From a virus, in the IMG/VR virus record IMGVR_UViG_3300029448_007456, positions 32,001 through 96,000 of that record: DNA of 64,000 bases. The stretch is one strand, 5' to 3'. The position numbers and the translations under genes are program-made. Below are positions 17,176-43,531 of the stretch, one piece after another; position 1 is the stretch's first letter, and each line of letters opens with the position of its first letter. The notes under the pieces are model-generated. The model saw only the letters and a program-made list of their open reading frames with translations, was not told the DNA's origin and ran no database searches.

Positions 17176-17278
17176 AAAGTCTCCTTGCTTTGTTCTACCC
17201 CTAGGTGGCATTCGGACTATAACCGTATCAAGTAATGTGAACGAATTTCACGTCGCTTTCCCACTATGCTTTTAGGAA
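17176..17278 (-). ncRNA. Cobalamin riboswitch, class II (AdoCbl-variant/Cbl-IIa type)
   Basis: CCUAAAAGC.UAGUGGGAAAG.GACGUGAAAUUCGU...UUACUUGAUACGGUUAUA.UCCGAAUGCCACCUAGG; P13 AAAG-CAAGGAGA-CUUU carries the RBS. Confidence 0.92.
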
Positions 17279-30449: not shown

Positions 30450-32485
30450 CCAAACTTCTAACACATTGGCTAACTGTTTTGATAACCCTTGCTGTGTTAG
30501 TAGGGTTGAGATTTCAAGATGGTGGACTTACTGAAACTGCTAGACTAAAATCCTTTGACTATCTTCAGTCAACAGATGCTAAGGAGATGTCACAAGACAT
30601 TGTCATTGTTGAATTTGACGAAAAGGCAATAGAAGGCTTTGGACAATGGCCATGGCCAAGGGATTATCTTGCTGATGTGATCAATCATTTGCGGAGTCAA
30701 GGTGCTGGGTTAATTGTGATGCCCATACTGTTTTCAGAAGAAGACAGAGCAGGCATGGACGATGTGCTTGCACAAACACTGCAAGGCAATGGAGTCATCA
30801 TTGCACAAACAGGAACCACACAAACAAATAAAAATGCAGTGCCAAGAGGCATTGCCAAAATAGGTGATCCAATACCATATCTTTTTCAATGGCCAGGCAT
30901 GTTGGGTCCTATACCTAAATTAGGTCAATCAGCAGATGGTGTTGGTGTATTAAACATTGCTCCTGAAAGAGATGGAGTTGTAAGACGTATGCCACTCATC
31001 ATGACAGTGTCAGGAGAAACATATCCTGCATTAGCCATTGAAACAATTCGTGTGGCCACACAGGCACCATCCTATCAAGTCAAAGCAGGCCCAACAGGAG
31101 TGCAGGCAGTGAGGGTGCCAGGTTATAATGTTATCACAACTGATGCCAATGCTAGAATTTGGTTACGTTGGAACAAACAGTTTCCTTCTGTTAGTATCAT
31201 GGAAGCCACACAAGAGCATGTGCAAGGCAAAATTGTTGTGATTGGACTCACAGCAGAAGGCATTGGATCCACCATTGCCGCACCCACAGGCACAGAATAT
31301 GCCCACACACCAGTGGCTGTATCCTTGCAAACTATCATTAATGGTGACAACATTGTTAGATCCGATCTAGCAGACACATACGAACTTGCATATCTGTTTG
31401 TGATTGGACTGTTATTGATCATTGCCGCAAGATTCTTTCACTATGGTGTGGTGGCAGGACTTATTGTATTAATTGGTGTGGGCACAGTGTATGGTTCTGT
31501 TCACATATATTCAACAAGACTGTTGCTGTTTGATTTTTCATGGCCTGTAATCACAACTGTGTTAGTAGGACTTCATGCTGTGTTCAATCGTTTTGTTTCT
31601 GAATACATGCAGAAGCAAGCCATAAAAAAACAGTTTGGTGGTTATGCATCGCCCACAGTGGTTAAGATGCTACAGGAAAATCCAGCACTTATCAAAGAAG
31701 GTGTTAAAAAAGAAGTGTCAATATGTTTTTCAGATCTACGTGGTTTTACACCACTTGGTGAATCGTTCGGCGATGATGTGAAAGGTTTGACTCAAGTGAT
31801 GAATGGATACATGGACGCCATAACCAAACCAGTGCTTGATGCAGATGGCATGATTATCAAGTATATTGGAGATGCAAGTATGCACATCCACAACGCACCA
31901 ATTGATGATGCTGATCATCCACGCACTGCTGTGCAAACTGGTTTGAATATGTTGAAAGCAGTTGAACAATTTAACAACAAGATCACAGCAGAAGGTAGAC
32001 CACCTGTTGGTATGGGTGCTGGTATTAACACAGGCCTTGGTTATATTGGTGAAATGGGATCAACTGAAAGACATTCATATGATGTGTTAGGCGATGCTGT
32101 GTCCACAACTGCAAGATTAGAATCACAGTGCAAGTCATATGGGGTGTTATTGATCATTGGGCCTGAAACTGTAGCAAGGACAAAAAACGATTTCTTCTAT
32201 TTGAAACTAGACGATCTTGCTGTGAAAGGTAAAACAGTTGGACTAGATATCTACACGGTGTTGGACAAGTCATATACACAAGCCAAAGCAACGCATGATG
32301 AAATGCATGAACTGTATGGCAAACAAAAATTCAAAGATGCTATTAGATTATGCAACAGACTCAAAGGAGAGTTTGATTCACAGATGGACAAATATTATGA
32401 CATGTGGATTGAACGTTGCGAATACATGACCACACAAAAATTACCAAAAGATTGGAATGGAGTGTTTGTGGCCACAACCAAGTAG
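30446..32485 (+). CDS. CHASE2-domain class III adenylate cyclase
   Basis: IVIV..DE...GQWPWPR, DGVVRR.PL, 3 TM helices, FSDLRGFT, KYIGD, GD.V...ARLES, W.GV..AT.K tail. Confidence 0.92.
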   Translation: MTKLLTHWLTVLITLAVLVGLRFQDGGLTETARLKSFDYLQSTDAKEMSQDIVIVEFDEKAIEGFGQWPWPRDYLADVINHLRSQGAGLIVMPILFSEEDRAGMDDVLAQTLQGNGVIIAQTGTTQTNKNAVPRGIAKIGDPIPYLFQWPGMLGPIPKLGQSADGVGVLNIAPERDGVVRRMPLIMTVSGETYPALAIETIRVATQAPSYQVKAGPTGVQAVRVPGYNVITTDANARIWLRWNKQFPSVSIMEATQEHVQGKIVVIGLTAEGIGSTIAAPTGTEYAHTPVAVSLQTIINGDNIVRSDLADTYELAYLFVIGLLLIIAARFFHYGVVAGLIVLIGVGTVYGSVHIYSTRLLLFDFSWPVITTVLVGLHAVFNRFVSEYMQKQAIKKQFGGYASPTVVKMLQENPALIKEGVKKEVSICFSDLRGFTPLGESFGDDVKGLTQVMNGYMDAITKPVLDADGMIIKYIGDASMHIHNAPIDDADHPRTAVQTGLNMLKAVEQFNNKITAEGRPPVGMGAGINTGLGYIGEMGSTERHSYDVLGDAVSTTARLESQCKSYGVLLIIGPETVARTKNDFFYLKLDDLAVKGKTVGLDIYTVLDKSYTQAKATHDEMHELYGKQKFKDAIRLCNRLKGEFDSQMDKYYDMWIERCEYMTTQKLPKDWNGVFVATTK

Positions 32486-42077: not shown

Positions 42078-42986
42078 TTAAGAACAGTGTTTTTTGCACA
42101 GACGCAATGGAGTTGTCAGCACCTGAGCGAAATTTTGGAACTGTGATGACTGCACAATGTGTTCCAACGTATGATGAGGTATTTTCATACGAGTTGGATC
42201 AGTCATTTTGAGCAACATTGAATAGTCTGTCTCTGTTTCAACTCCCGTGGACCATGCATGGAGTCCACCCAGATAACAACAAGGATACACAGAGCCATCA
42301 GCATACACAAATAGTTCTTTTTTGTTCACACTCATGCAAGACACACAGCCTGTAGGCACTCTAACAGTTTGATCATCTGCTGGATATAGGCTGGTTTCTA
42401 CAAAATTTCTATCTGAGTGCAAGGTTATGAAGTTTGAAAATGCAAGTTGCTGTGATAGTTGTTCACAGTCGTGCCATTGATGTTGATTGTGTTGGAATTT
42501 AATAAACTGCCAGTGTGCATTGCCACCATGGCCAATGAATGTTTTTGCATTTGCCAAAACTTTGTCATAGTCAGTTCCTATCCTATACATGCTATGTGTA
42601 TCAGCCAATCCATCTATGCCAAACACAACCTTGTCATGGGAGTTTAATATTTCAGCCAGGCGTTGCCAATATGCATCATTATGTAAGCCACCATTGGTTG
42701 CTATCCACACTTTTATCTTTGGATTGTGCTGTTTGAAATGTTGGACAATGTTCAAAAAGTCTTTAGCAATGATAGGATCACCTGTGGTCCCTTTGAATAT
42801 AACACTTCTAAGTCCTGATATGATTGTAGTATCAATAGACTGTTTGATGTCTTGTAGTGACAGTTCATCTTTGTTGAGTCCTTGTAGTAATCTACCTTTA
42901 GTGTATCTTGGACACTGTGGACATTTTGCATTACACTTGTTGGCCAGTTCAAACTCAATGGATTCTAATTGTTGTATATCAAACAT
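42078..42986 (-). CDS. Radical SAM/SPASM protein
   Basis: CNAKCPQC, GDP, TNGG, FGIDGL, DG.VYPCC, C-terminal C..HC. Confidence 0.85.
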   Translation of the reverse strand: MFDIQQLESIEFELANKCNAKCPQCPRYTKGRLLQGLNKDELSLQDIKQSIDTTIISGLRSVIFKGTTGDPIIAKDFLNIVQHFKQHNPKIKVWIATNGGLHNDAYWQRLAEILNSHDKVVFGIDGLADTHSMYRIGTDYDKVLANAKTFIGHGGNAHWQFIKFQHNQHQWHDCEQLSQQLAFSNFITLHSDRNFVETSLYPADDQTVRVPTGCVSCMSVNKKELFVYADGSVYPCCYLGGLHAWSTGVETETDYSMLLKMTDPTRMKIPHHTLEHIVQSSQFQNFAQVLTTPLRLCKKHCS

Positions 42987-42993
42987 TACTCAA

Positions 42994-43182
42994 TGGCCTG
43001 TTCTGTTGCTAGGTAGGCCAAACCCCGCCAACCTAATTAATTAGGCCGCAAGTGCTAGAGTTTCCTCAGCGATTGTAATTTGCCAACTACTCTATCTGTC
43101 AATCCACTCGCCCCCGGAAGGGAGTCTGTTGGTGGAGGCGCCGGGGTTGATCCCGGGTCCAGTATAGTATCAAACGTCAGCA
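42994..43182 (-). ncRNA. ssrA: Permuted two-piece tmRNA (alphaproteobacterial type)
   Basis: Acceptor piece ...GAC-CCGGG-loop-CCCGG-CGCCUCC-ACCA ends at 43130; 14-nt spacer; coding piece starts GGGGGCG at 43115 (G3.U70 pair); tag AEETLALAA-stop at 43070-43041; 3' GCGGGG...ACCUAGCAACAGAA element; promoter TAGACA-N17-TAAAAT at 43188-43216. Confidence 0.92.
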
Positions 43183-43213
43183 CAATTATTTTATGCTAAT
43201 TTTGAACTTTTGT

Positions 43214-43531
43214 CTACTTGGTTTGTAAGGGTGGCACTGATGAAGCAGGCTGTATACCTGTGGTGCCTTGAATGTAATTGTCAGCGGCTTGCTTGTTGGC
43301 TTTTTGCATGGTAACCACAGATGCTTTGTTGAACACAAAGTCCTTGGTCATGTCACCCATCACAAGATACTGTTGCATGCCAATGCCTTGTTGTGTCATT
43401 GCAAGTGCCAGTGGTTTTGACACTTTCACTGTCTTGTCATCTTGTGATAAAAACTTTGCAATAACTTCGTCACCGCCTTGTATTCGCATAGCGATAATGT
43501 CATTTGACTTAAATCCTGCGTCGATAAGCAT
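43214..43531 (-). CDS. Hypothetical protein (possible Sm-like fold)
   Basis: I....G.EVIA...V.KP pattern; ends Y.Q.T.GI. Confidence 0.55.
   Translation of the reverse strand: MLIDAGFKSNDIIAMRIQGGDEVIAKFLSQDDKTVKVSKPLALAMTQQGIGMQQYLVMGDMTKDFVFNKASVVTMQKANKQAADNYIQGTTGIQPASSVPPLQTK

Follow-up and report, generated by a model that had tools for sequence, protein, structure and literature searches.

A phage-borne two-piece tmRNA gene of the alphaproteobacterial type that lacks pseudoknot 1

A 64,000-nucleotide (nt) stretch of viral DNA (IMG/VR virus record IMGVR_UViG_3300029448_007456, positions 32,001 to 96,000; the whole stretch is called the window here, and positions are counted from its first letter) carries a gene for a transfer-messenger RNA (tmRNA) on its minus strand at 42994-43216. 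It is a phage-borne, miniaturised ssrA of the alphaproteobacterial two-piece type. With a probability of about 70%, the product is a functional two-piece tmRNA that uses the RNase P, alanyl-tRNA synthetase (AlaRS) and EF-Tu of the host, as well as its SmpB, and adds the peptide AAEETLALAA without pseudoknot 1 (pk1). Among the pseudoknots of tmRNAs pk1 shows the highest conservation, and what it does remains under debate. A chance match is excluded, because the alphaproteobacterial tmRNA model of Rfam gives significant E-values and because the stems are kept in 16 distinct homologues.

Structure of the gene

The gene has the permuted order of a two-piece tmRNA, with an acceptor piece followed by a spacer and a coding piece, both when the sequence is read directly and when it is aligned to the Rfam model alpha_tmRNA (RF01849). 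The predicted parts are listed below in the order of transcription.

43188..43216, minus strand: sigma-70-like promoter, -35 box TAGACA at 43216-43211, 17-nt spacer, -10 box TAAAAT at 43193-43188
43130..43181, minus strand: acceptor piece of ~52 nt, with the helix 2 5' strands, T arm, acceptor 3' strand and ACCA
43182-43176 and 43167-43160, minus strand: helix 2 5' strands, in the acceptor piece
43156-43141, minus strand: T arm, stem CCGGG/CCCGG, 6-nt loop AUCAAC at 43151-43146
43140-43134, minus strand: acceptor 3' strand CGCCUCC, then ACCA at 43133-43130
43116..43129, minus strand: intervening spacer ACAGACUCCCUUCC, 14 nt
42994..43115, minus strand: coding piece of ~122 nt, its probable 3' end placed at the end of the pseudoknot
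43115-43109, minus strand: acceptor 5' strand GGGGGCG, the start of the coding piece
within the coding piece, minus strand: D-loop analogue AGUGGAUUGA
43098-43092 and 43087-43081, minus strand: helix 2 3' strands, in the coding piece
43071..43081, minus strand: single-stranded linker AAAUUACAAUC, 11 nt from helix 2 to the resume codon, at the pk1 site of other tmRNAs
43041..43070, minus strand: tag frame GCU GAG GAA ACU CUA GCA CUU GCG GCC UAA, read as (A)AEETLALAA-stop
43031..43046, minus strand: helix 5, hairpin GCCUAA-UUAA-UUAGGU enclosing the stop codon
42994..43028, minus strand: 3' H-type pseudoknot of the alpha type, stem 1 GGGU/ACCU, stem 2 UGGCCU/AGGCCA, loop AGCAACAGAAC

The tRNA-like domain is assembled from both pieces. 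GGGGGCG pairs with CGCCUCC-ACCA in a 7-bp acceptor stem with a G3.U70 pair, a discriminator A and an encoded CCA end. The T stem has 5 bp, and the T-loop of 6 nt is one shorter than in the model; family A, the set of close relatives described below, has the loops AUCAAC, GUCAUG or AUCGAC, with U-C-R-A kept. The D-loop analogue, AGUGGAUUGAC where a GGAUUCGAC-like sequence is expected, is 2 nt shorter than the alpha consensus. Helix 2 is formed by GCUGAC/GUUGGC and by UAU(A)CUG/CAGAUA with one further C-G pair. The resume codon GCU (43070-43068) stands in the context UUACAAUC-GCU, and the frame ends with the stop codon UAA at 43043-43041. The 3' element, GGCGGGGUU..ACCUAGCAACAGAA..AGGCCA with its last base at 42994, fits the 3' consensus of RF01849.

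The promoter is the top-ranked promoter-like site in a 1.2-kb scan and matches the consensus at 10 of 12 positions. Its position would place the start of transcription near 43181, at the 5' end of the acceptor piece. The mature RNA would then total ~174 nt, from pieces of 52 nt and ~122 nt whose ends are deduced from the sequence.

These parts agree with an initial annotation of the window made from the letters alone. It had described the TAGACA-N17-TAAAAT promoter on the minus strand, an acceptor piece of about 52 nt ending in CGCCUCC-ACCA, the 14-nt spacer, a coding piece of about 120 nt starting with GGGGGCG and giving the G3.U70 pair, both helix 2 pairings, the tag AEETLALAA-stop and the T-loop AUCAAC. 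All were read again here, the coding piece coming to 122 nt. The permuted layout and the alpha-type 3' element that it recognised match RF01849.

Searches with Rfam models and ARAGORN

RF01849 matches the gene from end to end with a score under its curated cut-off. In E-value mode the match in an 801-nt stretch has 39.7 bits (E 8.5e-10) and spans 42992-43220, and it is the sole match on the whole 114.8-kb record (E 3.0e-11). The model for permuted tmRNA (RF04321) gives 38.1 bits. The curated gathering cut-offs are 50 bits for RF01849 and 47 bits for RF04321. Both models can be aligned over the tRNA-like domain and helix 2 (2a), and likewise over the resume region, the end of the tag and the 3' element. 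The RF01849 alignment deletes the 5' hairpin, the middle of helix 2 and the pk1-bearing block before the resume codon.

The relatives of the gene differ in how they score. Family A is under both cut-offs, with 39.4-48.7 bits for RF01849 and 37.7-40.9 bits for RF04321, while two other short phage families, B and C, pass the RF04321 cut-off with 59-65 bits and 80-96 bits, respectively. ARAGORN made no call in the window gene, nor in the loci of families A, B or C; this silence is a blind spot of the tool and not counter-evidence to the gene. The initial annotation had proposed a check with Rfam and ARAGORN, and its outcome is thus a significant alpha_tmRNA match under the cut-off with ARAGORN silent. 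At curated thresholds Rfam reports no tmRNA in the window.

Conservation among close relatives

The conservation of the gene in related phages is that of a working tmRNA gene and not of a remnant, as far as the sequences tell. Family A was gathered by pattern scans of viral and metagenome contigs and consists of 16 distinct sequences from 30 marine viral or metagenome loci, some of which are one contig present in both collections. Wherever the upstream sequence suffices, the genes follow nrdB (at least 95% identical) and the open reading frame (ORF) phrog_527 (74-100% identical), and the downstream genes vary. In the alignment 97.7% of the pair cells can pair, against 32-49% when the partners are slid.

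The stems are either invariant or compensated, which is the result of the homologue covariation check proposed in the initial annotation. The T stem and acceptor stem are the same in all 16 distinct sequences. Helix 2 has only one-sided changes that keep the pair (A-U to G.U; U-A, U.G, C-G). Stem 2 of the 3' pseudoknot is compensatory, with both sides changed in four of its six pairs. Helix 5 is paired in 99% of the cells, and its loop varies in length among the homologues. The phrog_527 neighbour falls to 74% identity at these loci and the stems of the tRNA-like domain are unchanged, a pattern that is indicative of purifying selection.

An isolated pair in the 3' pseudoknot, 43026/43008 (alignment columns 160/181), also covaries, being G-C in 11 sequences, A-U in three and C-G in two. 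It has no neighbours on which it could stack, and it may be a tertiary contact of the alpha-type 3' pseudoknot.

The other variation lies in the T-loop, the spacer, the linker and the tag. The tag frame is conserved, and its variation is mainly at third codon positions: five of the six variable sites are at such positions, and four are synonymous. The encoded peptides are AEETLALAA and ADENLALAA. The context of the resume codon, UUAYAAxY-GCN, is kept. The linker is A/U-rich and 9-11 nt long, so that its 2-nt length change breaks any frame running in from upstream. The promoter is kept in most loci, and two (L154 and L159) carry TTGACA-type boxes. The spacer is 14 nt throughout, compared to 23-33 nt in most long forms and 5 nt in one bacterial gene (L150).

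Size and absence of pk1

The sequence of the window gene leaves no place for pk1, and no hairpin replaces it. Size was measured as the distance that separates the resume codon from G1, the base with which the coding piece opens. The segments were measured by script because a MAFFT alignment of short and long forms misplaced the region of the spacer and G1. The distances are as follows.

Family A (window, L121, L123, L125, L131, L156): 43-45 nt, window 45 nt
Family B (L126, L133): 45 nt
Family C (L089): 47 nt
Mostly hairpin type (L004, L008, L012, L031, L075, L084, HTVC008M; all except L008 examined): 74-78 nt
Long-form phage genes (L108, L085, L117, L103 and others; pk1 present): 81-89 nt, rarely up to 114 nt
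Bacterial alpha genes (L150, L151, L174): 84-86 nt

The same distance is 89 nt in the tmRNA of E. coli. The window gene and families A and C have a common short layout, in which helix 2 has strands of 6, 9 and 3+1+3 nt in the acceptor piece and of 6, 4 and 6 nt in the coding piece, followed by the 11-nt linker. No knot can form in this linker, since it is too short, too rich in A and U and variable in length. The initial annotation had argued that 11 nt before the resume codon leave no room for pk1; the deletion of the pk1 block in the RF01849 alignment and the 45 nt from G1 to the resume codon bear this out. Sequence resembling pk1 is absent from family A, while CGGCAUGGUACCGCCGUUAUCGGG or a close variant is kept in all 12 alphaproteobacterial genes found with a control pattern. 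Set against its long relatives, the window RNA has dispensed with pk1 and with the middle segment of helix 2; the 5' hairpin, two bases of the D-loop, one of the T-loop and half of the spacer are gone too.

Related phage families and origin of the short form

The reduction appears to have taken place within phages, because related phages bear long or hairpin-type genes, some of them at the same locus. Long-form genes are found near nrdB and phrog_527 in related phages, ~370 nt (L108) and ~1.6 kb (L117) downstream of phrog_527. In a third (L085) it follows phrog_527 only after some 5 kb, which makes the synteny loose. The stem and loop GGGGUUGGCAACUUACCUGGCAACAGAAAAGUUG of the 3' pseudoknot in these long forms are identical in two members of family A, L156 and L163. 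These observations fit the description of the gene in the initial annotation as streamlined in a virus.

Other phage genes have a hairpin, AGUC-GRAA-GACU, where pk1 would sit. A permuted tmRNA of this kind was seen in the cultured Pelagibacter phage HTVC008M (NC_020484.1 145161-145370; L204:1500-1750), where it has 90.6 bits with RF04321 and is unannotated in RefSeq. Its tag is ANFNEYALAA, the hairpin at the pk1 site is CACU-GGCG-AGUG, and the resume codon is 75 nt from G1. Taken together, the phage sequences appear to form a reduction series that starts with pk1, passes through a hairpin and ends with neither.

Family C is a pk1-less, alpha-type miniature tmRNA found in 29 viral contigs with 19 distinct sequences (L089:9084-9304 on the plus strand, and L176-L203). 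Its segments are laid out as in family A and the linker is near-identical, AAAUCACAAAU. Family C is more diverse than family A, with four compensatory types of acceptor stem and compensatory T stems, and the last pair of helix 2 switches between A-U and G-C in 14 of 14 sequences. Its spacer, of 23 to ~220 nt, is enclosed by a long AAACACA.../...UGUGUUU stem, and it encodes tags such as ANDNFAPSGFALAA. Compared to family C, family A has two fewer D-loop bases, one fewer T-loop base, the 14-nt spacer and a 9-codon tag. On sequence grounds it seems to be a branch in which a short form resembling that of family C was reduced still more.

Family B (L126:4903-5171 on the minus strand, and L122, L127, L128, L130, L133, L135, L136 and L173) is another two-piece tmRNA of phages without pk1. 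Its T-loop is the canonical UUCGAUU, its promoter is of the form TTGACA-N17-TATAAT, a tRNA-Ala gene lies directly upstream, and its resume codon is apparently ACA (Thr), which would give the tag TNDNYDYQMAA. Family B probably arose separately, because its layout is different and its T-loop is canonical. A blastn search with families A, B and C against GenBank phages gave no true match, so no cultured phage with any of the three was found there.

Comparison with known tmRNAs

Two-piece tmRNAs of phages are already published, but no description of a pk1-less miniature form was found in the searchable literature. Buchholz et al. (2022) reported two-piece tmRNAs in the Methylophilales phage Melnitz and in pelagimyophages, and ARAGORN found them in 17 of 47 related contigs (PMC9004378). 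The same paper reported curli pore genes for Melnitz and SAR11 myophages. Like the window gene, the genes of Melnitz, the pelagimyophages and HTVC008M are phage-borne, permuted, alpha-type ssrA genes with their own promoter in T4-like marine phages, from the group whose members bear csgGF. The genes of Melnitz and the pelagimyophages must be of ordinary size, since ARAGORN detected them, whereas it missed the window gene, as did both Rfam cut-offs. The HTVC008M gene has its hairpin and 75 nt before the resume codon, while the window gene has 45 nt there and is without a hairpin; its spacer is 14 nt long and its T-loop 6 nt.

The bacterial counterpart is the Caulobacter-type tmRNA (Keiler, Shapiro and Williams 2000; RF01849). 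The window gene resembles it in gene order, in CGCCUCC-ACCA/GGGGGCG, in the GAC linker and the bulged helix 2a, in a resume context of the form AuAAuU-GCa, in a tag ending AA-stop, and in the 3' pseudoknot GGCGGGGUU..ACCURGCAACAGAA. The bacterial genes differ in that pk1 is kept in all 12 found with the control pattern and the T-loop has 7 nt where it was read (L150, L151, L174), while the window gene has neither pk1 nor the 5' hairpin and lacks the middle of helix 2. They are also much longer, as the initial annotation had stated: 37 strong RF01849 matches in a sample of Pseudomonadota span 305-479 nt, compared to 229 nt for the window gene.

Smaller tmRNAs have been described in nature and by design. 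pk1 is found in nearly all tmRNAs, and the shortest ORF-bearing tmRNA in the survey of Burks et al. (2005) has 250 nt (PMC1168896). This is the size of the two-piece tmRNA of Synechococcus PCC7009, while the window RNA has ~174 nt and a conserved tag. The earlier estimate of about 175 nt agrees with this, and the suggestion that the RNA may be among the smallest tag-retaining tmRNAs is tempered by families B and C, which are equally short. The tmRNAs of jakobid mitochondria and of mycobacteriophage DS6A, which has only the tRNA-like domain, are extreme reductions too, but they have no tag frame, which the window gene keeps. E. coli pk1 can be reduced to a hairpin with tagging retained (Wower 2009, cited in PMC4236655). 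Engineered E. coli tmRNAs (Wower, Zwieb and Wower 2009; Tanner et al. 2006) show that tagging can do without the knotted form of pk1. These constructs are one-piece and keep a hairpin and the full helix 2, while the window gene is natural, combines complete loss with a shorter helix 2, and is known from its sequence.

Only 79 of the sequences in a 2025 tmRNA database come from phages, and the permuted model that belongs to it is stated to find every permuted gene it contains (PMC11915505); family A is under the cut-off of this model. The tag strings are absent from the searchable papers and from the supplements of the database paper.

Bacterial genomes

No equally short bacterial tmRNA was seen in the genomes searched, with patterns of low sensitivity. 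A short-form pattern limited to spacers of 8-25 nt, and thus blind to short forms whose spacers are longer, was run over 185,579 bacterial species representatives and gave five matches, none of them alphaproteobacterial and none with an ARAGORN tmRNA. The five were taken as chance matches, with the stretches themselves unread. A second short-form pattern matched none of 401 alphaproteobacterial genomes, at a sensitivity of about 10%, as the long-form control caught 12 of 121. Weak RF01849 matches (35-60 bits) in other Pseudomonadota were first read as short bacterial two-piece genes. ARAGORN made no call in L143-L148 as cut, and the matches are probably partial matches to one-piece tmRNAs.

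Locus and phage record

The gene is intergenic with its own promoter and fills the whole 227-nt gap at 42987-43213. The -35 box is overlapped by the TAG stop of the upstream ORF. The neighbours across the gap are as follows.

43214-43531: phrog_527 ORF, 105 amino acids, upstream of the tmRNA gene
42078-42986: radical-SAM/SPASM gene, downstream of the tmRNA gene

nrdB and nrdA lie just upstream of the locus formed by the tmRNA gene and phrog_527. In another member of family A, the radical-SAM gene at L121:5245-6149 (plus strand) matches the window protein in two frames (residues 1-71 and 72-302), which points to a frameshift or to faulty assembly of that contig. The nrdB of the window phage is about equally distant (64-65%) from those of cyanomyophages and HTVC008M. 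CheckV judged the 114778-bp linear record to be only 34% complete. If this figure is correct, the genome is far above the known pelagimyophages of 140-180 kb.

The sole Rfam family above threshold in the window is an AdoCbl-II (cobalamin) riboswitch aptamer, full-length at 17198-17278 on the minus strand, with 78.4 bits against a cut-off of 36.5. No glutamine riboswitch was found in the window at the curated thresholds of Rfam.

Function and alternative explanations

The RNA is predicted to act in trans-translation in the infected host, with host proteins supplying the processing, charging and delivery. The sigma-70-type promoter would start the transcript at helix 2 or a base or two earlier. 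Host RNase P would cleave before G43115, and host 3' processing would expose the encoded CCA, leaving pieces of 52 nt and ~122 nt held together by the 7-bp acceptor stem and the two-segment helix 2. By analogy to the two-piece tmRNA of Caulobacter, the spacer would be lost through an RNase P cut at G43115 together with trimming of the CCA end. Host AlaRS could charge the RNA with alanine by way of the G3.U70 pair and the discriminator A, and host SmpB and EF-Tu would deliver it to stalled ribosomes. Translation would resume at GCU, 11 nt past helix 2, and add AAEETLALAA up to the stop at UAA; this peptide ends in LAA, as ssrA degrons typically do. What the phage gains is likely to be extra ribosome-rescue capacity in infection. 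Roles suggested for other phage tmRNAs are the upkeep of hijacked host machinery and the selective tagging of host proteins (PMC9004378).

Several observations weigh against such a function. The T-loop has only 6 nt, and neither pk1 nor a substitute hairpin can be found in the sequence. In work by Tanner in 2006, an E. coli construct in which a single strand replaced pk1 is reported to have lacked activity. Neither Rfam score reaches its curated cut-off, and ARAGORN gives no call. In family A the tRNA-like domain and helix 2 scarcely vary, so no compensatory proof comes from them. The minimum-energy fold of the precursor is no better than that of shuffled sequence (z -0.62), although this test is uninformative for a tRNA-like two-piece RNA.

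The main rival explanation is that the RNA is a decoy for SmpB and EF-Tu. It would be made and perhaps charged, but it would not tag proteins without pk1; instead it would titrate host SmpB and block host trans-translation. There is a precedent in phage DS6A, whose tmRNA is little more than a tRNA-like domain, and a similar molecule strongly inhibits tmRNA (PMC4131195). In the window family the tRNA-like domain is likewise the most conserved part, and pk1 and part of helix 2 are missing. However, the tag frame with its AA-stop end, the resume context, the hairpin around the stop codon and the 3' pseudoknot are all kept. The variation in the tag is mostly at third codon positions, and three separate short families (A, B and C) retain a tag frame. 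A decoy is disfavoured because it would not need the conserved tag frame, resume context, helix 5 or 3' pseudoknot, and we consider it unlikely.

A phage-encoded helper is somewhat less probable again. Such a helper, either a phage SmpB or a protein in the role of pk1, would be encoded outside the known fragment and be needed for trans-translation. Most of the genome is unseen if the record is 34% complete, which leaves room for a gene of this kind. Against it, no SmpB match was found in the 114.8-kb record at that level of completeness, and the tRNA-like domain keeps the alpha-type features that suit host SmpB.

It is very improbable that the gene is an internally deleted phage tmRNA drifting without function, although it is shorter than detectors expect, scores under the Rfam cut-offs and has an odd 6-nt T-loop. 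All 16 distinct variants keep their stems, the promoter is conserved and no indel disrupts the gene, although the flanking protein has meanwhile diverged to 74% identity with different genes downstream. In the sister family C, changes in the acceptor stem and the T stem are compensatory.

Implications

The preferred reading, a working two-piece tmRNA that tags without pk1, would have consequences beyond this phage. The odds seem about even that marine myophages carry a natural class of fully active miniature tmRNAs, made up of families A and C and separately of family B, in which the resume codon is 43-47 nt from the 5' end of the coding piece. Such genes are commoner in marine myophages than ARAGORN-based counts suggest, and surveys based on ARAGORN (for example PMC9004378) would undercount phage tmRNA genes. 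Routine virome annotation is blind to family A, since it is missed by ARAGORN and by both Rfam cut-offs.

If the reading is true, trans-translation in vivo can do without pk1 and without about half of helix 2. At ~174 nt, family A would then rank as the smallest known tmRNA that encodes a tag, and this small two-chain RNA would offer a ready minimal substrate for studies of structure and mechanism, by cryo-electron microscopy and in vitro. A natural tmRNA that keeps its tag without pk1, without a substitute hairpin and with a helix 2 of half length would set a much lower bound on what trans-translation needs.

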